From Escherichia coli (GTDB lineage Bacteria > Pseudomonadota > Gammaproteobacteria > Enterobacterales > Enterobacteriaceae): a stretch of DNA of 64,000 bases. The notes under the pieces are model-generated. The model saw only the letters and a program-made list of their open reading frames with translations. It was not told where the DNA came from and did no database searches. This document shows positions 18,078-30,750 of the stretch, piece after piece. The stretch lies in NCBI RefSeq assembly GCF_003334335.1, contig NZ_QOWQ01000002.1; one strand, written 5' to 3'. Each line of letters begins with the position of its first letter. Position 1 is the stretch's first letter. Position numbers and translations under genes: made by a program.

Positions 18078-19769
18078 ATGAAAACGCTGCTGATTATTGA
18101 CGCTAATCTCGGTCAGGCACGCGCCTATATGGCGAAGACCCTGCTGGGCGCGGCGGCGCGAAAAGCAAAACTGGAAATCATCGACAATCCGAACGACGCT
18201 GAAATGGCGATTGTTCTCGGTGATTCCATCCCGAACGACAGCGCGCTGAACGGTAAAAATGTCTGGCTGGGCGATATTTCCCGGGCAGTTGCGCACCCTG
18301 AGCTGTTCCTGAGTGAAGCCAAAGGCCATGCGAAACCTTACACTGCGCCGGTCGCTGCGACAGCACCAGTTGCCGCCAGCGGTCCGAAACGCGTAGTTGC
18401 GGTGACTGCTTGCCCGACTGGCGTAGCACACACCTTTATGGCGGCTGAAGCCATTGAAACCGAAGCGAAAAAACGTGGCTGGTGGGTGAAAGTTGAAACC
18501 CGTGGTTCTGTTGGCGCGGGTAATGCAATCACTCCCGAAGAAGTCGCAGCAGCGGATCTGGTGATTGTGGCGGCAGATATCGAAGTGGATCTGGCGAAAT
18601 TTGCTGGTAAACCGATGTATCGTACCTCTACCGGTCTGGCGCTGAAGAAAACCGCGCAGGAACTGGATAAAGCGGTTGCTGAAGCAACGCCGTATGAACC
18701 GGCGGGCAAAGCTCAAACGGCGACCACTGAAAGTAAGAAAGAGAGTGCAGGCGCATACCGTCACTTGCTGACGGGCGTTTCTTACATGCTGCCGATGGTC
18801 GTTGCAGGTGGTCTGTGTATCGCGCTTTCTTTTGCTTTTGGTATCGAAGCGTTTAAAGAGCCGGGTACGTTGGCTGCGGCGCTGATGCAGATTGGTGGTG
18901 GTTCAGCCTTTGCGCTGATGGTGCCGGTACTGGCAGGTTATATTGCCTTTTCCATTGCCGATCGTCCGGGCCTCACTCCGGGTCTGATTGGCGGTATGCT
19001 GGCGGTCAGCACCGGTTCTGGCTTCATTGGTGGTATTATTGCGGGCTTCCTGGCTGGTTACATTGCGAAGTTAATCAGTACGCAATTGAAACTGCCACAG
19101 AGTATGGAGGCGCTGAAACCGATCCTGATCATTCCGCTAATTTCCAGTCTGGTGGTCGGTCTGGCGATGATCTACCTGATCGGTAAACCAGTTGCTGGCA
19201 TTCTCGAAGGGCTGACTCACTGGCTGCAGACCATGGGGACTGCGAATGCGGTTCTGCTGGGGGCGATCCTCGGTGGCATGATGTGTACTGACATGGGCGG
19301 TCCGGTAAACAAAGCAGCGTACGCATTCGGTGTGGGTCTGCTGAGTACTCAAACCTATGGCCCGATGGCGGCGATTATGGCGGCAGGTATGGTGCCACCG
19401 CTGGCAATGGGTCTGGCAACAATGGTGGCGCGTCGCAAATTCGACAAAGCGCAGCAGGAAGGTGGCAAAGCCGCTCTGGTATTGGGACTGTGCTTCATTT
19501 CGGAAGGTGCAATTCCGTTTGCTGCTCGTGATCCGATGCGTGTGCTGCCGTGCTGTATCGTGGGTGGGGCGCTGACTGGCGCAATCTCAATGGCGATTGG
19601 TGCGAAACTGATGGCACCGCACGGTGGTCTGTTTGTTCTGCTGATCCCTGGCGCTATTACGCCGGTATTGGGTTACCTAGTAGCAATTATTGCCGGTACG
19701 CTGGTGGCGGGTTTGGCCTATGCCTTCCTGAAACGTCCGGAAGTGGACGCAGTAGCGAAAGCAGCGTAA
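18078..19769 (+). CDS. fruA: Fructose-specific PTS IIB'BC component
   Basis: 563-aa ORF with IIB Cys motif (VTACPTGVAHTFMAAE) and polytopic IIC domain; terminator downstream. Confidence 0.95.
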   Translation: MKTLLIIDANLGQARAYMAKTLLGAAARKAKLEIIDNPNDAEMAIVLGDSIPNDSALNGKNVWLGDISRAVAHPELFLSEAKGHAKPYTAPVAATAPVAASGPKRVVAVTACPTGVAHTFMAAEAIETEAKKRGWWVKVETRGSVGAGNAITPEEVAAADLVIVAADIEVDLAKFAGKPMYRTSTGLALKKTAQELDKAVAEATPYEPAGKAQTATTESKKESAGAYRHLLTGVSYMLPMVVAGGLCIALSFAFGIEAFKEPGTLAAALMQIGGGSAFALMVPVLAGYIAFSIADRPGLTPGLIGGMLAVSTGSGFIGGIIAGFLAGYIAKLISTQLKLPQSMEALKPILIIPLISSLVVGLAMIYLIGKPVAGILEGLTHWLQTMGTANAVLLGAILGGMMCTDMGGPVNKAAYAFGVGLLSTQTYGPMAAIMAAGMVPPLAMGLATMVARRKFDKAQQEGGKAALVLGLCFISEGAIPFAARDPMRVLPCCIVGGALTGAISMAIGAKLMAPHGGLFVLLIPGAITPVLGYLVAIIAGTLVAGLAYAFLKRPEVDAVAKAA

Positions 19770-19955: not shown

Positions 19956-20191
19956 GTTCTGTTCTGTGCATCCCGTCACAAATTCCTCGCTTTTGTAATT
20001 CAGGCATTTAATCGCATTTTGTGAGCCTGCTCAAATCTGCCCATTTTGCCTCTCTGGCGGTAATTTACTTTACGTAAAACATGCATACTATGAGCACATG
20101 TTTAAATATGAACACATGTTTAAACCGTCTTTGCAGTATCTATATTCTTGTGGATTGACAGGGTTGGTAATTTTTTACCAGAGGACGTGCT

Positions 20192-21133
20192 ATGCGCGAA
20201 AAGGATTATGTCGTAATTATAGGTTCGGCGAATATTGATGTCGCCGGATATTCACATGAATCATTAAATTATGCGGATTCAAATCCAGGTAAAATAAAAT
20301 TTACGCCTGGTGGAGTAGGGCGCAATATTGCACAAAACCTGGCGTTGCTGGGTAACAAAGCCTGGCTACTGAGCGCCGTAGGCAGTGATTTTTATGGTCA
20401 ATCGCTGCTAACGCAAACCAATCAATCTGGCGTTTATGTCGATAAATGCCTGATTGTGCCGGGAGAAAATACGTCGAGTTATTTATCATTACTCGATAAT
20501 ACCGGTGAAATGCTGGTTGCTATAAATGACATGAATATTAGCAACGCTATTACAGCTGAATATCTCGCACAGCACGGTGAATTTATTCAGAGGGCAAAGG
20601 TCATTGTCGCGGACTGTAATATCAGTGAAGAGGCACTGGCATGGATTCTGGATAATGCCGCCAACGTACCCGTATTTGTCGATCCGGTTTCGGCATGGAA
20701 ATGTGTCAAAGTGCGCGACCGTCTAAATCAGATCCACACTCTCAAGCCAAACCGCCTTGAAGCGGAAACCCTGAGTGGGATTGCGCTGTCAGGGCGTGAA
20801 GATGTGGCAAAAGTTGCTGCCTGGTTCCATCAACATGGCCTGAACCGACTGGTATTGAGCATGGGCGGCGACGGCGTTTATTACAGCGATATCAGCGGTG
20901 AAAGTGGCTGGTCTGCGCCGATCAAAACCAATGTTATTAATGTTACCGGAGCGGGCGATGCCATGATGGCGGGACTTGCTTCGTGTTGGGTAGACGGAAT
21001 GCCGTTTGCCGAATCTGTTCGTTTCGCACAGGGATGTTCGTCAATGGCGCTCTCCTGTGAATACACCAATAACCCCGATTTATCGATTGCCAACGTTATA
21101 TCGTTAGTGGAGAACGCAGAATGTCTGAATTAA
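20192..21133 (+). CDS. psuK: Pseudouridine kinase, PfkB family
   Basis: 313-aa PfkB-type kinase ORF; overlaps psuG start by 13 nt. Confidence 0.9.
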   Translation: MREKDYVVIIGSANIDVAGYSHESLNYADSNPGKIKFTPGGVGRNIAQNLALLGNKAWLLSAVGSDFYGQSLLTQTNQSGVYVDKCLIVPGENTSSYLSLLDNTGEMLVAINDMNISNAITAEYLAQHGEFIQRAKVIVADCNISEEALAWILDNAANVPVFVDPVSAWKCVKVRDRLNQIHTLKPNRLEAETLSGIALSGREDVAKVAAWFHQHGLNRLVLSMGGDGVYYSDISGESGWSAPIKTNVINVTGAGDAMMAGLASCWVDGMPFAESVRFAQGCSSMALSCEYTNNPDLSIANVISLVENAECLN

Positions 21134-22059
21134 AAATTTCCCCTGAATTATTACAAATTTCCCCGGAAGTGCAGGACGCTTTAAAAAACAAAAAACCGGT
21201 TGTGGCGCTGGAATCGACCATTATTTCTCACGGGATGCCGTTCCCACAAAATGCCCAGACCGCAATTGAAGTTGAAGAAACTATTCGTAAACAGGGCGCT
21301 GTACCTGCCACGATCGCCATTATTGGCGGCGTGATGAAAGTGGGGTTAAGCAAAGAAGAAATTGAATTACTGGGTCGTGAAGGGCATAACGTGACCAAAG
21401 TTAGTCGTCGCGATTTACCTTTTGTTGTTGCCGCCGGAAAAAATGGCGCAACCACTGTGGCTTCAACGATGATTATTGCGGCGCTTGCCGGAATTAAAGT
21501 ATTTGCCACCGGGGGAATTGGTGGTGTGCATCGCGGGGCGGAACATACCTTCGATATTTCTGCCGATTTGCAAGAACTGGCAAATACTAATGTCACCGTT
21601 GTTTGTGCCGGGGCGAAATCTATTCTCGATTTAGGATTAACCACTGAGTATTTAGAAACCTTCGGTGTGCCGTTAATTGGCTATCAGACTAAAGCGCTGC
21701 CTGCGTTTTTCTGCCGCACCAGCCCGTTTGACGTCAGCATTCGTCTCGACAGCGCCAGCGAAATTGCCCGTGCAATGGCGGTGAAATGGCAAAGCGGTCT
21801 GAACGGTGGCCTCGTGGTAGCGAACCCGATCCCGGAACAGTTTGCTATGCCGGAACACACTATCAATGCGGCGATCGATCAGGCGGTAGCTGAAGCTGAA
21901 GCTCAGGGAGTCATTGGTAAAGAAAGTACGCCATTCCTGCTGGCGCGCGTTGCTGAACTGACCGGCGGTGACAGCCTGAAATCCAACATCCAGCTGGTGT
22001 TCAACAACGCCATTCTGGCGAGCGAAATTGCCAAAGAATATCAGCGTCTCGCGGGTTAA
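21121..22059 (+). CDS. psuG: Pseudouridine-5'-phosphate glycosidase
   Basis: 312-aa ORF; operon position between psuK and psuT. Confidence 0.9.
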   Translation: MSELKISPELLQISPEVQDALKNKKPVVALESTIISHGMPFPQNAQTAIEVEETIRKQGAVPATIAIIGGVMKVGLSKEEIELLGREGHNVTKVSRRDLPFVVAAGKNGATTVASTMIIAALAGIKVFATGGIGGVHRGAEHTFDISADLQELANTNVTVVCAGAKSILDLGLTTEYLETFGVPLIGYQTKALPAFFCRTSPFDVSIRLDSASEIARAMAVKWQSGLNGGLVVANPIPEQFAMPEHTINAAIDQAVAEAEAQGVIGKESTPFLLARVAELTGGDSLKSNIQLVFNNAILASEIAKEYQRLAG

Positions 22060-22152
22060 TTTCTGACGGGCAGAAAGCCGTCGCCCGTACTCATCAAGCA
22101 TACCAAAACCTGGCGCTGACGCCGGGTTTACCGGCATGAAGGGAAAATCATT

Positions 22153-23402
22153 ATGGATATAATGAGAAGTGTTGTGGGGATGGTGGTGTTACTGGCAATA
22201 GCATTTCTGTTGTCAGTGAATAAAAAGAGCATCAGTTTGCGCACGGTTGGAGCCGCACTGCTGCTGCAAATCGCTATTGGTGGCATCATGCTCTACTTCC
22301 CACCGGGAAAATGGGCAGTAGAACAGGCGGCATTAGGCGTTCATAAAGTGATGTCTTACAGTGATGCCGGTAGCGCCTTCATTTTTGGTTCGCTGGTTGG
22401 GCCGAAAATGGATGTCCTGTTTGACGGTGCGGGTTTTATCTTCGCCTTTCGCGTACTTCCGGCGATTATTTTCGTTACTGCGCTCATCAGTCTGCTGTAC
22501 TACATTGGCGTGATGGGGCTGCTGATTCGCATCCTTGGCAGCATTTTCCAGAAAGCCCTCAACATCAGCAAAATCGAATCTTTTGTTGCGGTTACTACTA
22601 TTTTCCTCGGGCAAAATGAGATCCCGGCGATCGTTAAACCGTTTATCGATCGCATGAATCGCAACGAGTTGTTTACCGCAATTTGTAGCGGGATGGCGTC
22701 CATTGCTGGTTCGATGATGATTGGTTATGCCGGAATGGGCGTACCAATTGACTACCTGTTAGCGGCATCGCTGATGGCGATCCCTGGCGGGATTTTGTTT
22801 GCACGTATTCTTAGCCCGGCAACCGAGCCTTCGCAGGTCACATTTGAAAATCTGTCGTTCAGCGAAACGCCGCCAAAAAGCTTTATCGAAGCGGCGGCGA
22901 GCGGTGCGATGACCGGGCTAAAAATCGCCGCGGTGTGGCGACGGTGGTAATGGCGTTTGTCGCAATTATTGCGCTGATCAACGGCATTATCGGCGGAATT
23001 GGCGGCTGGTTTGGTTTCGCCAATGCCTCTCTGGAAAGTATTTTTGGCTATGTGCTGGCACCGCTGGCGTGGATCATGGGTGTGGACTGGAGTGATGCCA
23101 ATCTTGCGGGTAGCCTGATTGGGCAGAAACTGGCGATTAACGAATTCGTCGCTTACCTGAGTTTCTCCCCATACCTGCAAACGGGCGGCACGCTGGAAGT
23201 GAAAACCATTGCGATTATCTCCTTTGCGCTTTGTGGTTTTGCTAACTTTGGTTCTATCGGTGTTGTCGTTGGCGCATTTTCGGCTATTTCGCCAAAACGC
23301 GCGCCGGAAATCGCCCAGCTTGGTTTACGGGCGCTGGCAGCAGCAACGCTTTCCAACCTGATGAGTGCGACTATTGCCGGGTTCTTTATTGGTCTGGCGT
23401 AA
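22153..23402 (+). pseudogene. psuT: NupC-family nucleoside (pseudouridine) transporter, disrupted by a -1 frameshift near 22927-22934
   Basis: Two consecutive ORFs (22153..22950 and 22935..23402) together align along the full length of the intact 416-aa paralogue NupX; frame changes at gccgcggtg where NupX has gccgcaggtg. Confidence 0.8.
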
Positions 23403-23472: not shown

Positions 23473-24132
23473 TTACTGCATCATCCCGGAGAATTTATTC
23501 TCCGGGTCCATCTCCAGCGCCAGTCCTGACAACTGCTTTCTGTTTTTAATGAGATACCCTTTCTTGCTTTTAATTAATAAACCGTCGTGAATGAACTGCG
23601 CGAGAACATATAAAAGATGTCGATAAGAAACGCCTAAATACTCTGCCGCTTGCGTATGCTTTTCGTGATAAAGATCACCTTCCTGCGAGAGTAATATAAA
23701 TGCTGCCAGGCGATTCACTAACGGAAATGATTGATTCTGAGTTAAAGAAACAATATTACGATAATTTTTATGACTTAAGGTGACGCAGAGTTTTCGTAAA
23801 AATAGCGTGTCGTTTAATAACAGCGGACGGTAATGTTTCATAGGGAGCGCAAGGCACCAACACTCTTCAATAGCCTGCACCGCACGCGGTTCATGGTCTT
23901 TATCGATTAACTCAATCTCGCCAATAAAACAGGGGGCGGCAAAGAAATCGATCAGCGACACGCGACCATTAGCTAGCGTGGCGTAAAGCCTGGCGCGGCC
24001 TCGCGTCAGGTAAAACAGCCAGGACGGCTGTTGCCCTTCCTGCACAATGTAGTCACGCGCTAAAAAATGAAACAGCCGCGTATCGGCTGAAACATCCGTT
24101 AAAAAGCAATCCTTAAACGCGGATTCACTCAT
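23473..24132 (-). CDS. yeiL: Crp/Fnr-family transcriptional regulator
   Basis: 219-aa product from internal Met ([10 protein letters not shown]) with C-terminal HTH typical of Crp/Fnr. Confidence 0.85.
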
Positions 24133-24300
24133 CAATTGCTGCTTAAGATCATTATTGTGGATTTCTTTCACGATGTTTATCCGCTATGAGATTTCTCATA
24201 TTTAGCATACGTACGCTGTTGTTAAGATTCAATCATCGGCCCGGTCGAATTTTCTTTGCTGTAGAAAAAATAACGCAACTGGAAACAGAGGAAATAAACA

Positions 24301-25242
24301 ATGGAAAAGAGAAAAATTATTCTGGATTGTGATCCGGGTCATGATGATGCTATTGCTATAATGATGGCGGCGAAACATCCGGCAATAGATTTATTAGGCA
24401 TCACTATTGTAGCGGGTAATCAGACGCTTGATAAAACATTAATTAATGGCCTGAATGTTTGCCAGAAACTGGAGATTAATGTTCCGGTTTATGCGGGGAT
24501 GCCGCAGCCCATTATGCGTCAACAAATCGTTGCCGATAATATTCACGGTGAAACCGGACTGGATGGCCCGGTATTCGAGCCGCTGACCCGCCAGGCAGAA
24601 AGCACTCATGCGGTGAAATATATCATTGATACCCTGATGGCAAGCGATGGCGATATCACTCTGGTGCCGGTTGGTCCGCTTTCAAATATCGCGGTGGCAA
24701 TGCGTATGCAACCCGCGATCCTGCCCAAAATCCGTGAAATTGTGCTAATGGGCGGCGCTTACGGTACAGGCAACTTCACGCCATCTGCCGAGTTCAACAT
24801 CTTTGCCGACCCGGAAGCCGCACGCGTAGTGTTCACCTCCGGCGTTCCATTAGTGATGATGGGCCTCGATCTCACCAACCAGACCGTTTGCACCCCGGAC
24901 GTGATTGCTCGGATGGAAAGGGCAGGCGGCCCCGCCGGAGAGCTGTTCAGCGACATCATGAACTTCACTCTCAAAACGCAGTTCGAAAACTACGGCCTTG
25001 CTGGCGGCCCGGTGCACGACGCCACCTGCATCGGTTATCTGATTAACCCTGATGGCATTAAAACCCAGGAGATGTACGTCGAAGTGGACGTCAACAGTGG
25101 CCCTTGCTATGGGCGTACCGTCTGCGACGAGCTGGGCGTTCTTGGCAAGCCCGCCAATACCAAAGTCGGCATCACTATTGATACAGACTGGTTCTGGGGA
25201 TTAGTCGAAGAGTGCGTGCGCGGCTACATCAAAACCCATTAA
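24301..25242 (+). CDS. rihB: Pyrimidine-specific ribonucleoside hydrolase
   Basis: 313-aa ORF with N-terminal DxDxxxDD nucleoside hydrolase motif ([12 protein letters not shown]). Confidence 0.93.
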
Positions 25243-25341
25243 GTGTTGATAACAAGCCGGGCCGGTATCGCAAGATGCAGGCCTGGCTATTTCTGATGGG
25301 CAGAAAGCCGTCGCCCAATATGACATGAAGAGATAATCACT

Positions 25342-26592
25342 ATGGATGTCATGAGAAGTGTTCTGGGAATGGTGGTATTGCTGACGATTGCGTTTTTACT
25401 GTCAGTAAACAAGAAGAAGATCAGCCTGCGTACCGTTGGCGCGGCGTTAGTGTTACAGGTCGTGATTGGCGGCATTATGCTTTGGTTACCGCCAGGGCGT
25501 TGGGTCGCTGAAAAAGTCGCTTTTGGCGTGCATAAAGTGATGGCGTACAGCGACGCGGGTAGCGCATTTATCTTCGGTTCTCTGGTCGGACCGAAAATGG
25601 ATACCTTATTTGATGGTGCAGGATTTATCTTTGGTTTCAGGGTGTTACCGGCAATTATCTTCGTCACCGCGCTGGTGAGTATTCTCTACTACATCGGTGT
25701 GATGGGGATTTTAATTCGAATTCTCGGCGGTATCTTCCAGAAAGCATTAAATATCAGCAAGATCGAGTCATTCGTCGCGGTCACCACCATTTTCCTCGGG
25801 CAAAACGAAATTCCGGCAATCGTCAAACCCTTTATCGATCGTCTGAATCGCAATGAATTATTTACAGCGATTTGTAGTGGCATGGCCTCGATTGCTGGTT
25901 CGACAATGATTGGTTACGCCGCACTGGGCGTGCCTGTGGAATATCTGCTGGCGGCATCATTAATGGCGATCCCTGGCGGGATCTTGTTTGCCCGCCTGTT
26001 AAGCCCGGCAACGGAATCTTCGCAGGTTTCCTTTAATAACCTCTCTTTCACCGAAACACCGCCAAAAAGCATTATTGAAGCCGCTGCGACAGGGGCAATG
26101 ACCGGGCTGAAAATCGCCGCAGGTGTGGCAACAGTGGTGATGGCATTTGTTGCAATAATTGCGTTGATTAACGGTATTATCGGCGGCGTTGGTGGCTGGT
26201 TTGGTTTTGAACATGCCTCGCTGGAGTCCATTTTAGGTTACCTGCTGGCTCCACTGGCGTGGGTGATGGGTGTGGACTGGAGTGATGCGAATCTTGCCGG
26301 GAGTTTGATTGGACAGAAACTGGCAATAAATGAATTTGTCGCTTATCTCAATTTCTCACCCTATCTGCAAACGGCTGGCACTCTCGATGCTAAAACTGTG
26401 GCGATTATTTCCTTCGCGTTGTGCGGTTTCGCTAACTTTGGTTCTATCGGGGTGGTGGTGGGGGCGTTTTCTGCGGTTGCGCCACACCGTGCGCCGGAAA
26501 TCGCCCAGCTTGGTTTACGGGCGCTGGCGGCGGCGACGCTTTCCAACTTGATGAGTGCGACCATTGCCGGGTTCTTTATTGGTTTAGCTTGA
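25342..26592 (+). CDS. nupX: NupC-family nucleoside transporter
   Basis: Intact 416-aa polytopic membrane ORF; close paralogue of psuT. Confidence 0.92.
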   Translation: MDVMRSVLGMVVLLTIAFLLSVNKKKISLRTVGAALVLQVVIGGIMLWLPPGRWVAEKVAFGVHKVMAYSDAGSAFIFGSLVGPKMDTLFDGAGFIFGFRVLPAIIFVTALVSILYYIGVMGILIRILGGIFQKALNISKIESFVAVTTIFLGQNEIPAIVKPFIDRLNRNELFTAICSGMASIAGSTMIGYAALGVPVEYLLAASLMAIPGGILFARLLSPATESSQVSFNNLSFTETPPKSIIEAAATGAMTGLKIAAGVATVVMAFVAIIALINGIIGGVGGWFGFEHASLESILGYLLAPLAWVMGVDWSDANLAGSLIGQKLAINEFVAYLNFSPYLQTAGTLDAKTVAIISFALCGFANFGSIGVVVGAFSAVAPHRAPEIAQLGLRALAAATLSNLMSATIAGFFIGLA

Positions 26593-26698: not shown

Positions 26699-27787
26699 TT
26701 ACACCATTGGCACTAATGAAAGCGCGTTATCGGCAGACAGGGTAGGGTTGTTTAAGCTGCCGCTGGCGCGCGAAATTGCCGCGCAGGCTACCGCAAAACG
26801 GGCGCTGTCGCGGAAACTGTATCCTTCAAGAAAGCTATATACCAGGCCCGCCATAAAACCATCGTCAGCACCAAAACTGTCTACTGTCGTATGCGCTGGC
26901 GCGGTCAGCAAAAATTGTTCTCCATCCTTTTCGCTGCAATAAACTGACTCATCGGGCAAATAAACAAACAGTTGCTGAACACCTTGCTGATGCAATGCAT
27001 TCACTGCGGTATTACGGTCAGCATCGCTGGTGATCGCCTGTCCCCATAAAATTTCCAGCTCCGGTAAAGTGGGTTTCAGGGTGTGAATATGCGCCAGCCA
27101 GTGTTTGATTTTGCCCGCTTTGAATTCTGAAACGGTATCGACAAACACCGGGATTTCATCAGCGAGGGTAAAGACCCATTCCAGCGCCTCGGCTGTCAGG
27201 TTGCAATCAGCCAGTACCACGCCCGCATGACGAAGTAAATCGCGCGACCCGTTCAGTAGTTGCGGTGTCAACTGTTCCAGCAGATGGGTATCGTTAATCG
27301 CCAGCACGGTTTGATCGTCTCGATTGGCAATTGCCAGATACGTCGATGTGCTTTGACCATGCAAACGAACGCAGCCGGAGACATTCACGCCGGCACGGCG
27401 CGTTTCTTCCAGGAGCATTTCGCCATAAAAGTCATCGCCAATCACTGAAAGCAAATGGACGTCACGGCCTAACAGCGCCAGATTGTGGGCGATGTTGCGT
27501 CCCACGCCGCCCGCTGAGCAATGAATTGTACCGGGATGAGAAGCCGATTGCGGGTAACGGATATCCGCCATCCCGCGAATATCCATATTGATTGTCCCCA
27601 CCACTACGCAGTATTCCTGCTCGGTGAGAATGTAACCTTTGCCTTTAATCCGGCCTTTGCGCATTAAATCCATAATATGCGCCGCAACGCGCGAACGGCT
27701 GATTTGCAGCATGTCCGCAATTTCGTTCTGCTGAATCAGCGGGTTACGCCGTAAAATTGCAAGGATCTCCTTTTCCCGGTTATTCAT
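26699..27787 (-). CDS. yeiI: Sugar/nucleoside kinase (PfkB family) with N-terminal winged-helix HTH domain
   Basis: 362-aa ORF; N-terminal HTH (EILAILRRNPLIQQNEIADMLQISRSRV) fused to a PfkB domain that aligns by eye with PsuK (GGVGRNIA.NLALLG). Confidence 0.88.
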   Translation of the reverse strand: MNNREKEILAILRRNPLIQQNEIADMLQISRSRVAAHIMDLMRKGRIKGKGYILTEQEYCVVVGTINMDIRGMADIRYPQSASHPGTIHCSAGGVGRNIAHNLALLGRDVHLLSVIGDDFYGEMLLEETRRAGVNVSGCVRLHGQSTSTYLAIANRDDQTVLAINDTHLLEQLTPQLLNGSRDLLRHAGVVLADCNLTAEALEWVFTLADEIPVFVDTVSEFKAGKIKHWLAHIHTLKPTLPELEILWGQAITSDADRNTAVNALHQQGVQQLFVYLPDESVYCSEKDGEQFLLTAPAHTTVDSFGADDGFMAGLVYSFLEGYSFRDSARFAVACAAISRASGSLNNPTLSADNALSLVPMV

Positions 27788-27789
27788 CT

Positions 27790-28647
27790 TCAGGCTACCG
27801 CTTTTTCAGTTTGTTGCGCTTTCAGCCAGGCGATCTCTTCTGCCCAGATATCCGGGTTGATGGTTTCGAGGATCAGCGGAATGCCGTCGAAACGGTCGTC
27901 CTGCATGATCCAGCGGAACGCATCATGACCGATATTGCCTTCACCGAGGCTATGATGGCGGTCAACGCGGCTGCCAAAGGTGCTTTTCGCATCGTTAAGG
28001 TGCATCCCGCGCAGATACTTAAAGCCGACAGTACGGGCAAAATCCGCGAATGTTTTCTCGCATTCGGCTGGAGTACGCAAATCATACCCGGCAGCGAAAG
28101 CATGGCAGGTATCAATGCAGACGCCGACGCGGGATTTATCTTCCACGCCGTCGATAATCGCCGCGAGATGTTCGAATTTAAACCCTAAGTTACTGCCCTG
28201 ACCGGCGGTGTTTTCTATCACCGCTGTCACACCTTGAGTTTTATCCAGCGCAATGTTGATGGATTCGGCAATACGCGCAAGGCAATCCTCTTCTGAAATC
28301 TGCATCAGATGGCTGCCAGGGTGGAAGTTGAGCAAAGAAAGCCCCAGCTGTTCGCAACGCTGCATTTCATCTATAAAGGCATCGCGCGATTTTTCCAGAG
28401 CTTCAGTGACCGGATGTCCGAGGTTAATCAGATAACTGTCGTGGGGAAGAATTTGCGCCGATGTGTAGTGATATTTTTCACAGGCGGCTTTGAATTCATC
28501 GATGGTTTGCGTCGTGAGCGGTGCGGCACGCCACTGACGTTGGTTTTTGGTGAACAAGGCAAACGCGGTTGCGTCGATTTCGGCGGCGCGAATTGCGGCA
28601 TTTGCCAGACCGCCAGCAGCACTAACGTGCGCTCCAATGTATTTCAT
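27790..28647 (-). CDS. nfo: Endonuclease IV (AP endonuclease)
   Basis: 285-aa ORF with conserved His/Asp/Glu metal ligands of the Nfo TIM-barrel family. Confidence 0.93.
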
Positions 28648-28720
28648 GCGAGGACTCCTGTTAAACCCGCTGGAGGAAAACGGTAATGATAGCGGGTTAA
28701 CAGGAGCAAGATGTAGTGGT

Positions 28721-29868: not shown

Positions 29869-30750
29869 ATGCACATCACCCTCCGGCAGTTGGAAGTTTT
29901 TGCAGAAGTATTGAAAAGTGGATCAACCACCCAGGCGTCGGTGATGCTGGCGTTGTCGCAATCAGCAGTGAGCGCAGCCTTGACCGACCTGGAAGGGCAG
30001 CTTGGCGTGCAACTGTTTGATCGCGTGGGGAAAAGACTGGTTGTTAATGAACACGGGCGGCTGCTCTATCCGCGTGCGTTGGCATTGCTTGAACAGGCGG
30101 TTGAAATCGAACAACTGTTTCGCGAAGACAACGGCGCGATTCGTATCTATGCCAGTAGTACCATCGGTAACTACATTCTGCCTGCAGTTATCGCCCGTTA
30201 TCGCCATGATTATCCGCAGTTGCCGATTGAACTTAGCGTTGGGAATAGCCAGGACGTGATGCAAGCGGTGCTGGATTTCCGCGTTGATATTGGCTTTATT
30301 GAAGGACCGTGCCACAGCACTGAAATCATTTCTGAACCGTGGCTGGAAGACGAGCTGGTGGTTTTCGCCGCGCCGACTTCGCCGTTGGCCCGTGGTCCGG
30401 TCACCTTAGAACAGCTGGCCGCTGCGCCGTGGATCCTGCGTGAACGCGGTTCCGGCACGCGGGAGATTGTCGATTATCTGTTGCTGTCACATTTACCGAA
30501 GTTTGAGATGGCGATGGAATTAGGTAACTCCGAGGCAATCAAACATGCGGTGCGTCATGGGTTGGGAATTAGTTGCCTGTCGCGACGTGTGATTGAAGAT
30601 CAATTGCAGGCAGGCACATTAAGTGAAGTTGCGGTCCCTCTGCCGCGCCTGATGCGTACGTTGTGGCGTATACATCATCGGCAAAAACACCTTTCCAACG
30701 CGCTACGGCGCTTTCTGGACTATTGCGATCCCGCAAATGTGCCGCGTTAA
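29869..30750 (+). CDS. yeiE: LysR-family transcriptional regulator
   Basis: 293-aa ORF with N-terminal LysR HTH ([20 protein letters not shown]) and divergent arrangement with yeiH. Confidence 0.9.

Follow-up and report, generated by a model that had tools for sequence, protein, structure and literature searches.

What the product of yeiI does in Escherichia coli, and which of its neighbors it serves, is the question raised by the locus studied here, which lies in a stretch of 64,000 nucleotides (contig NZ_QOWQ01000002.1 of assembly GCF_003334335.1; hereafter the window). The 2.5 kb surrounding yeiI are 100% identical to E. coli K-12 MG1655, and the window represents a K-12-like chromosome. 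The MG1655 counterpart, yeiI (b2160), is annotated as 'putative sugar kinase YeiI'. The initial annotation of the window, made from the sequence alone, regarded the substrate of this protein as not established and suggested a one-component sensor-regulator of the neighboring nupX and rihB genes; PMC9061257 calls the function of YeiI unknown. We consider it somewhat probable that YeiI is a pseudouridine-responsive regulator, most likely a repressor, of the psuK-psuG-psuT operon. The gene and its domains are as follows.

26699..27787, minus strand: yeiI, a fusion of HTH_24 and PfkB, 362 aa (open reading frame, Pfam, and MG1655 match)
27644..27787, minus strand: winged helix-turn-helix (HTH), residues 1–48
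within 27644..27787, minus strand: recognition helix, approximately residues 31–43 (RSRVAAHIMDLMR), followed by the wing KGRIKGKGYIL
26744..27616, minus strand: PfkB (ribokinase-like) domain, residues 58–348

The proposed fusion of an N-terminal HTH to a PfkB domain was borne out by Pfam. HTH_24 (PF13412) matched over its full model at residues 1–48 with an E value of 2.3e-10, and PfkB (PF00294) matched residues 58–348 with an E value of 3e-68. The paralogy with pseudouridine kinase PsuK also held: BLASTP aligned 307 residues at 39% identity with 2 gaps (E 6e-76). Both peptides quoted in the initial annotation occur in the translations. An AlphaFold2 (AF2) model of YeiI, built on a 28-sequence alignment, had a mean predicted local distance difference test (pLDDT) score of 89.9, with block means of 73–93 over residues 1–50. 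In this model, three helices (residues 3–14, 20–27, and 31–43) and a β wing (strands at approximately 47–54) precede the PfkB fold, and the structure prediction and domain search thus agree on a winged helix at this end. The PfkB fold superposed on E. coli pseudouridine kinase (PsuK/PUKI, also YeiC; structures 7vtd, 7vva, and 7vkp) with a target-normalised TM score of 0.95 against 7vtd, and the top Foldseek matches were PfkB kinases throughout. No PDB chain covering YeiI residues 1–54, or an HTH of this kind together with the PfkB fold, was found. PsuK dimerizes through a β-clasp small domain that YeiI shares, and the PfkB domain of YeiI is presumed to serve for nucleoside sensing and dimerization.

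Is this PfkB domain still a kinase? Four features of the catalytic site and the nucleoside pocket bear on this question.

27059..27070, minus strand: TLPE (T240–E243), in place of the NxxE Mg2+/phosphate motif (PsuK N187–E190)
26945..26962, minus strand: YLPDES (Y276–S281), in place of the glycine-rich SMGGDG loop (PsuK S223–G228)
26861..26872, minus strand: GADD (G306–D309), in place of the GAGD anion hole and catalytic base (PsuK G253–D256)
27539..27541, minus strand: Ser83, equivalent to PsuK Ser30, which reads pseudouridine N1 and triggers dimer closure

Residues were compared between 22 sequences of PsuK and of its HTH-bearing form (HTH-PsuK) and the YeiI clade (11 aligned YeiI sequences plus outlying members). 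N187 was invariant in the 22 sequences and was replaced by Thr in 11 of the 11 aligned YeiI sequences and by Ser or Ala in the outlying members P0051, P0052, and P0059. In the glycine-rich loop, which we take from ribokinase structures to hold the ATP phosphates, S223 and G228 were invariant in PsuK and HTH-PsuK; the YeiI clade carries S223Y/C and G228S. G255 was also invariant in the 22 sequences, and every YeiI-type sequence has Asp (D308) at this position, with the catalytic Asp (D309) kept. Two acidic residues among these changes are placed at the presumed position of the ATP phosphates. Further substitutions at PsuK-invariant positions include M114T and a few others, and M114T and D29A lie close to the base-binding pocket. 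N187 belongs to the putative Mg2+ site of PsuK (PMC9247573), NxxE is essential in adenosine kinase (PMC3118340), the anion-hole motif of adenosine kinase is DTNGAG-D (PMC6086891), and D256 is the catalytic base of PsuK (PMC9061257). The label 'kinase' is doubtful, given that the entire YeiI clade shows changes in three phosphoryl-transfer motifs, and we infer that the domain is catalytically weakened or dead. PMC12506659, citing Preumont 2008, states that a psuK mutant is unable to use pseudouridine, and therefore YeiI does not appear to substitute for PsuK. No enzyme assay of YeiI was found in the literature.

The nucleoside pocket was retained. Ser30, Asn143, and Lys170 define pseudouridine recognition in PsuK (PMC9061257), and the equivalent triad of Ser83, Asn196, and Lys223 in YeiI was invariant across PsuK, HTH-PsuK, and YeiI. 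The pocket residues kept in YeiI are N14, D16, S30, G41, N45, Y97, N112, N143, and K170 (PsuK numbering), and D217 (PsuK D164) is also kept. At the level of protein families, YeiI scored 812.9 bits over its full length against NCBIfam NF007416 (cut-off 561), the YeiI equivalog named 'sugar kinase', a name that carries no tested function. Its score against NF007355 (PsuK, EC 2.7.1.83; cut-off 540) was 256.3, below the cut-off, and that of PsuK was 710.9. YeiI thus shares with PsuK its fold, its pseudouridine-reading residues, and the catalytic Asp, and differs from it in the N-terminal winged helix, the TxxE, GADD, and YLPDES motifs, and the score under the PsuK cut-off. The HTH was the best-conserved part of the YeiI clade, with a mean identity of 92% against 77% for the kinase domain; the kinase domains of PsuK proteins are 78% identical among themselves.

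We then considered from what kind of protein YeiI derives. A search of 90%-identity clusters gave 778 relatives at E ≤ 1e-20, nearly all with the HTH_24 plus PfkB architecture. Motifs were surveyed in the 150 best representatives of 50%-identity clusters, 142 of which were usable; 112 of the 142 were HTH fusions, and 96 of these 112 kept the pseudouridine triad. In many Gammaproteobacteria, pseudouridine kinase usually takes the HTH-PfkB form, and its gene stands at the head of an HTH-psuK-psuG(-psuT) operon. The HTH-PsuK group comprises Yersinia, Serratia, Morganella, Hafnia, Photorhabdus, Xenorhabdus, Gilliamella, Pasteurellaceae (including Pasteurella), Shewanella, and, among Neisseriales, Aquitalea and Chromobacterium. 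The gene is the first of the operon, followed by psuG and then usually by a CNT nucleoside transporter gene, and its product, annotated as 'PfkB family carbohydrate kinase' or 'pseudouridine kinase', carries canonical NxxE and GAGD. HTH-PsuK is therefore probably both enzyme and regulator. The identity of its kinase domain to E. coli PsuK was 57–60% in Enterobacterales and Pasteurellaceae and 45–48% in Shewanella and Aquitalea, against 39–49% to YeiI. The second group, the YeiI clade, comprises Escherichia, Citrobacter, Enterobacter, Kluyvera, Buttiauxella, the Klebsiella oxytoca group, Leclercia, Kosakonia, Phytobacter, Pseudocitrobacter, and Entomohabitans, with Affinibrenneria as an outlier. 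Between the YeiI clade and HTH-PsuK, the HTH was 71% identical and the kinase domain 46%. YeiI shares the two-domain architecture with HTH-PsuK and differs from it in its altered motifs and in being a separate gene beside an HTH-less PsuK.

A neighbor-joining tree of kinase domains placed HTH-less PsuK among the HTH-PsuK sequences and the YeiI clade on a long branch. Catalytic motifs were altered in 26 of the 112 HTH fusions, some of which may be truncated or frameshifted gene calls, against 2 of the 30 HTH-less forms (both N to S), and more distant HTH fusions lack even the catalytic Asp or K185 (GAAS, GTSG, GIDN). No HTH relic was detected ahead of psuK in the 423-bp fruA-psuK spacer, and tblastn with the N-termini of the Yersinia, Pasteurella, and YeiI proteins matched yeiI only. 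The ancestor would be a widespread bifunctional HTH-pseudouridine kinase, the two jobs of which would have been split in the ancestry of Enterobacteriaceae and some of their relatives: PsuK would have dropped the HTH and remained the enzyme, and YeiI would have retained both the HTH and the pseudouridine pocket, with a phosphoryl-transfer site that was reshaped. In Yersinia kristensenii, the HTH-PsuK gene is annotated with a start (MFKNKQVSIMTSREK..., loci L001/L002, 8001-8027) that adds 9 codons overlapping both operator sites described below; translation probably begins at the internal Met (MTSREK), as in other genera.

The next question is which genes YeiI serves. The gene order psuK-psuG-psuT, yeiL, rihB-nupX, and convergent yeiI given in the initial annotation was correct, as judged from the open reading frames and the MG1655 comparison.

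20192..23402, plus strand: psuK-psuG-psuT operon, the predicted target of YeiI, with an HTH-less psuK of canonical motifs
20192..21133, plus strand: psuK
23473..26592, both strands: yeiL (minus), rihB (plus), and nupX (plus), a lineage-specific block between yeiI and psuT for which control by YeiI is not predicted

We compared 37 YeiI-type loci from approximately 12 genera of Enterobacteriaceae, together with Affinibrenneria and one further contig. The order in the 37 loci was lysP, yeiE, yeiH, nfo, yeiI, and then a convergent transporter gene. In Affinibrenneria and the further contig, the YeiI-type gene has no adjoining nfo and still faces psuT-psuG-psuK. In all of these loci the YeiI-type gene is separate from, and convergent to, psuT-psuG-psuK with an HTH-less canonical psuK. 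Most genera and Escherichia albertii have a single transporter gene, and yeiI abuts the psu operon; psuG and psuK come next, with fruA and fruK after them in most of these loci. The nupX-rihB-yeiL block lies between yeiI and psuT only in most Escherichia, one Citrobacter amalonaticus, Phytobacter diazotrophicus, and Entomohabitans; E. albertii lacks it, and some other Escherichia records lack all or part of it. The three genes move together as one insertion block, patchy in Enterobacteriaceae and always including the regulator gene yeiL (loci L006-L011, L028, and L039). Since yeiI faces psuT-psuG-psuK everywhere and the block is patchy, the conserved partner of yeiI is psuKGT. Linkage of the family to psuG, in the same operon or convergent, was found in all of the at least 80 loci examined. 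Because canonical PsuK always stands alongside YeiI, the simplest reading is that PsuK is the enzyme and YeiI the sensor-regulator.

The following elements were predicted upstream of psuK.

20020..20035, plus strand: CRP-like site TGTGA-N6-TCAAA, approximately 70–72 bp upstream of the predicted transcription start
20064..20091, plus strand: predicted psuK promoter, −35 TTTACT (20064-69), 16-bp spacer, −10 TACTAT (20086-91)
20092..20103, plus strand: predicted operator O1, GAGCACATGTTT, directly following the predicted −10
20110..20121, plus strand: predicted operator O2, GAACACATGTTT, 18 bp after O1

A palindrome, AAACA-NN-TGTTT, occurs upstream of HTH-psuK, typically as two copies 18 bp apart just ahead of the start codon. 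The same pair, usually with the 18-bp spacing, occurs approximately 80–120 bp upstream of HTH-less psuK in YeiI-bearing genomes. Within 1.04 Mb of loci, 26 of the 27 perfect AAACANNTGTTT sites lay within 330 bp upstream of psuK or HTH-psuK, regions that make up approximately 2.5% of that sequence. A pair with ≤4 mismatches was present in 27 of 29 regions upstream of HTH-less psuK against approximately 2% of random 330-bp windows, a control that still contained true sites. These counts are not independent because the sequences are related; the motif nevertheless persists across families and orders with otherwise unalignable intergenic DNA. In the window, the psuK pair was the best pair, and the only other pairs with 4 mismatches were inside coding sequence. 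Single sites were not above chance (5 found, 3.1 expected), and therefore only the paired sites and their conservation across genomes carry weight. The best matches upstream of rihB, nupX, nfo, and yeiI (the last inside nfo) had at least 4 mismatches in 10, and the regions upstream of rihB, nupX, psuT, nfo, and yeiI together with the yeiH-yeiE spacer contained nothing better than 3–5 mismatches. When the regions upstream of psuK in 16 genera and species were aligned, the conserved islands were the CRP-like box, the −35, the −10 (TAnnAT-like), and the two operators. The TGTGA and TCA of the box (TGTGA-N6-TCA(T/A)A), which is assigned to CRP by consensus only, were kept in 16 of 16 regions. This layout matches that of a promoter under catabolite activation whose start site is blocked by a dedicated repressor.

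Two further observations concern the palindrome. A third copy, often perfect, lies approximately 275–287 bp upstream of many HTH-psuK starts and approximately 250 bp from the proximal pair (L002 7753, L042 5716, L067 5496); it may serve DNA looping or control of the upstream gene. A one-mismatch site, CCAAAGCATATGTTTAAC, recurs in Citrobacter beyond the 3' end of lysP, at approximately position 1000 (L011-L014, L025, L026), outside the psu locus.

The promoter is also a site of adaptive mutation. According to PMC9509342, a psuK/fruA intergenic A to C change at 2257444 (older MG1655 numbering) arose in 5 of 7 mouse-gut populations and was the only such mutation selected there. After calibration with atoC I129S, this single-nucleotide polymorphism (SNP) corresponded to T to G at window position 20066 (NC_000913.3 2259422), which converts TTTACT to TTGACT. 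In PMC7858067, a single recurrent psuK/fruA A-to-C allele is reported in 3 of 4 long-term stationary-phase populations; the text of that paper gives no position, and the allele is probably the same. An assignment of the recurrent SNP to the operator was rejected, since its position falls within the −35 hexamer and precedes O1 by 26 bp. It is therefore a promoter-up change that gives no direct evidence for the operator, and its recurrence lends independent support to the promoter assignment.

From this arrangement we infer DNA binding by YeiI, the sign of the regulation, and its effector, and the following mechanism is proposed. YeiI would dimerize through its β-clasp domain, as PsuK does, and its dimers would occupy O1 and O2, two 12-bp palindromes, covering the transcription start and blocking initiation. 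The blocked promoter would be weak and probably CRP-dependent, and expression would also need CRP. Pseudouridine would enter the PfkB pocket and be read by Ser83, Asn196, and Lys223. In PsuK, pseudouridine closes the dimer via Ser30, with an inter-subunit marker distance that falls from 66 to 51 Å (PMC9061257). A comparable closure of lid and dimer in YeiI would re-orient the winged helices, which are joined directly to the first strand of the kinase domain and hence would be moved by the closure, and would free the DNA. Co-transcription with nfo would supply YeiI constitutively.

Several points weigh against a repressor of this kind. E. coli O1 has 2 mismatches to the consensus, the 18-bp center-to-center spacing puts two dimers on different faces of the helix, and the transcription start within or near O1 is a prediction placed by hexamer matches. 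YeiI keeps D309, K238 (PsuK K185), E243 (PsuK E190), and the GG hinge, and residual or altered kinase activity may persist. In addition, the accessible data in the PMC9509342 supplement list no yeiI mutation among the adaptive mutations. The same experiments often knock out repressors (dgoR, srlR, glpR, and frlR), whereas psuK is raised always via the one promoter SNP. A simple repressor is a larger mutational target, and the absence of yeiI hits therefore counts against YeiI being one. A weak promoter as the limiting step would fit this absence, and so would a YeiI that is not a simple repressor.

Alternatives were also weighed. YeiI may still be bifunctional, phosphorylating pseudouridine, perhaps slowly, and repressing psuKGT, with the substitutions tuning catalysis. 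The retained D309, K238, E243, D217, GG motif, and all of the pocket residues are consistent with this, as is a kinase-like domain as conserved in the YeiI clade as in PsuK, and the operators and synteny speak for it as much as for a regulator without catalysis. However, three phosphoryl-transfer elements have changed together and are fixed clade-wide, including the two acidic residues at the ATP phosphates. Canonical HTH-less PsuK always accompanies YeiI, the psuK mutant reportedly fails to use pseudouridine (PMC12506659), and even the catalytic Asp is gone from more distant HTH fusions. We consider a bifunctional YeiI unlikely, although credible. A kinase active on another nucleoside or sugar, with an HTH that is autoregulatory or directed at an unrelated target, possibly nfo and DNA or RNA damage, could account for the 2-bp nfo-yeiI junction, which is kept across Enterobacteriaceae loci, for M114T and D29A close to the base-binding pocket, and for a score far under the PsuK equivalog cut-off (256 vs 540 bits). 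We find this improbable: the pseudouridine triad and the rest of the pocket are invariant, the link outside Enterobacteriaceae is to psuKGT and not to nfo, neither nfo nor yeiI has an operator-like site upstream, and with NxxE, the anion hole, and the glycine loop all altered, an efficient kinase is hard to expect, whatever its specificity.

In regard to the initial annotation, its one-component sensor-regulator was plausible as such, but synteny and operators direct it to psuKGT and not to nupX and rihB. A kinase-regulator dedicated to the rihB-nupX module, as proposed there, is very improbable. In E. coli K-12, yeiI does adjoin nupX-rihB, and nupX is a psuT paralogue with approximately 79% nucleotide identity. 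Most YeiI-bearing genera and E. albertii nevertheless lack the block, which carries its own yeiL, and YeiL is the more natural regulator of rihB-nupX. Some E. coli with intact yeiI have lost nupX, no operator-like site was found in the yeiL-rihB or rihB-nupX intergenic regions, and yeiI is convergent to nupX and probably belongs to the nfo transcription unit. The pseudouridine-responsive regulator of psuKGT remains the reading that we prefer.

We compared this regulator with known systems. Enzyme-derived regulators include BirA (biotin ligase and repressor) and NadR (HTH, NMN adenylyltransferase, and ribosylnicotinamide kinase). The ROK repressors NagC and Mlc have a sugar-kinase fold without kinase activity, and Bacillus subtilis PurR and PyrR have phosphoribosyltransferase folds. 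Like these proteins, YeiI would combine a DNA-binding domain with a metabolic-enzyme fold that binds the metabolite of its own pathway, and in ROK and PurR the fold has lost catalysis and acts as a sensor, as proposed for YeiI. Unlike them, YeiI would use a PfkB/ribokinase-fold sensor with an HTH_24 (Lrp/AsnC-like) DNA-binding domain. To our knowledge, no PfkB-fold transcription factor has been characterized, and none was found in the literature searched. Nor did that literature yield a study of HTH-PfkB proteins or of psuKGT regulation, a published regulator of pseudouridine catabolism ('PsuR'), or chromatin immunoprecipitation (ChIP) or SELEX data for yeiI. With regard to YeiI itself, it has been listed as a hypothetical transcription factor (PMC6055005), and PMC12506659 reports that machine-learning tools wrongly call it a pseudouridine kinase. 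The discussion of a paper on LeuO names 'YdcI and YeiI' as LysR-type regulators (PMC6698644); because YeiI is not of the LysR type and the neighboring YeiE (window 29869..30750) is, this is almost certainly a slip for YeiE.

As a joint claim, tentative and held with less than even confidence, we propose that YeiI is the first described transcription factor with a PfkB-fold pseudokinase sensor and that it was subfunctionalized from a large family of bifunctional HTH-pseudouridine kinases, which accounts for no fewer than 112 of the 50%-identity clusters among the nearest relatives, with repeated catalytic decay only in the DNA-binding lineage. In the same claim, the clade-invariant anion-hole Asp would be a built-in phosphate mimic that permits ATP-independent closure, and the two yeiI alleles of E. 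coli described below would represent an old polymorphism. If the regulatory role is true, yeiI, still among the E. coli K-12 genes without a known function, would gain a regulon, an operator, and an effector. It would also explain the control of psuKGT, an operon repeatedly hit by promoter-up mutation in gut colonization and long-term stationary phase; these recurrent hits suggest that pseudouridine scavenging affects fitness. Hundreds of 'PfkB family carbohydrate kinase' annotations would become pseudouridine kinase-regulators, and the family would show cleanly how a bifunctional enzyme-regulator can divide into an enzyme and a regulatory pseudoenzyme. A repressor and operator that respond to pseudouridine would also be a useful biosensor for strains now being engineered to produce pseudouridine for mRNA manufacture.

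On its other side yeiI adjoins a gene on which the initial annotation was silent.

27790..28647, minus strand: nfo (endonuclease IV), with its stop codon 2 bp ahead of the yeiI ATG

The junction is TGA-AG-ATG with both genes on the minus strand. Because the nfo stop lies only 2 bp ahead of the yeiI ATG, the two genes probably share a transcript in which yeiI is the second, distal gene. PMC3946193 lists an RNA polymerase binding peak at the nfo/yeiI border. In the yeiH-nfo spacer, at window 28650-28700, a near-perfect long inverted repeat (CTCCTGTTAAACCCGCT ... AGCGGGTTAACAGGAG) is probably a yeiH terminator or a regulatory palindrome.

The psu genes and their leader showed further features. 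A hairpin, TTGGTAA-TTTT-TTACCAA, lies at 20164-20180, directly ahead of the psuK Shine-Dalgarno sequence. It is kept across genera with compensatory changes (GGTA/TACC, GGCA/TGCC, and AGCA/TGCT), the predicted psuK leader folds better than shuffled sequences (z −3.3), and no Rfam family was found in it. The window has a 1-bp deletion in psuT relative to MG1655 at 22931/22932 (CGCCGC-GGTG vs CGCCGCTGGTG), which splits the gene into open reading frames 22153..22950 and 22935..23402. The exact deletion sequence is absent from all 5426 complete E. coli genomes, and the deletion is either private to the source of the window or a sequencing error. Other single-base differences from MG1655 are at 19679 (fruA) and 21779 (psuG). 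In E. coli 2014C-3057, psuK is interrupted by IS600 (L088 16162-17318), and in E. coli strain 729_xx_1_3_yolk, nupX is a 66-bp remnant (L089 10192-10257).

Finally, 5421 of the 5426 complete E. coli genomes carry yeiI, and their alleles fall into two classes with a sharp gap between them. The K-12 gene was matched at ≥95% identity in 3363 genomes and at 81–82% in 2060, with none between (62% vs 38%). The divergent block (window 26900-27790, codons 1 to approximately 295) runs from the yeiI ATG to approximately 100–200 bp before the stop codon; on its flanks, identity per 100-bp block is 95–100% in nfo, and it reaches 100% at the 3' end of yeiI. Between the alleles, 110 codons differ synonymously and 51 nonsynonymously. 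GADD and T240 are retained in the second allele, which shares 92% identity with E. albertii yeiI. The split has the look of an import by recombination long ago or of a balanced polymorphism.

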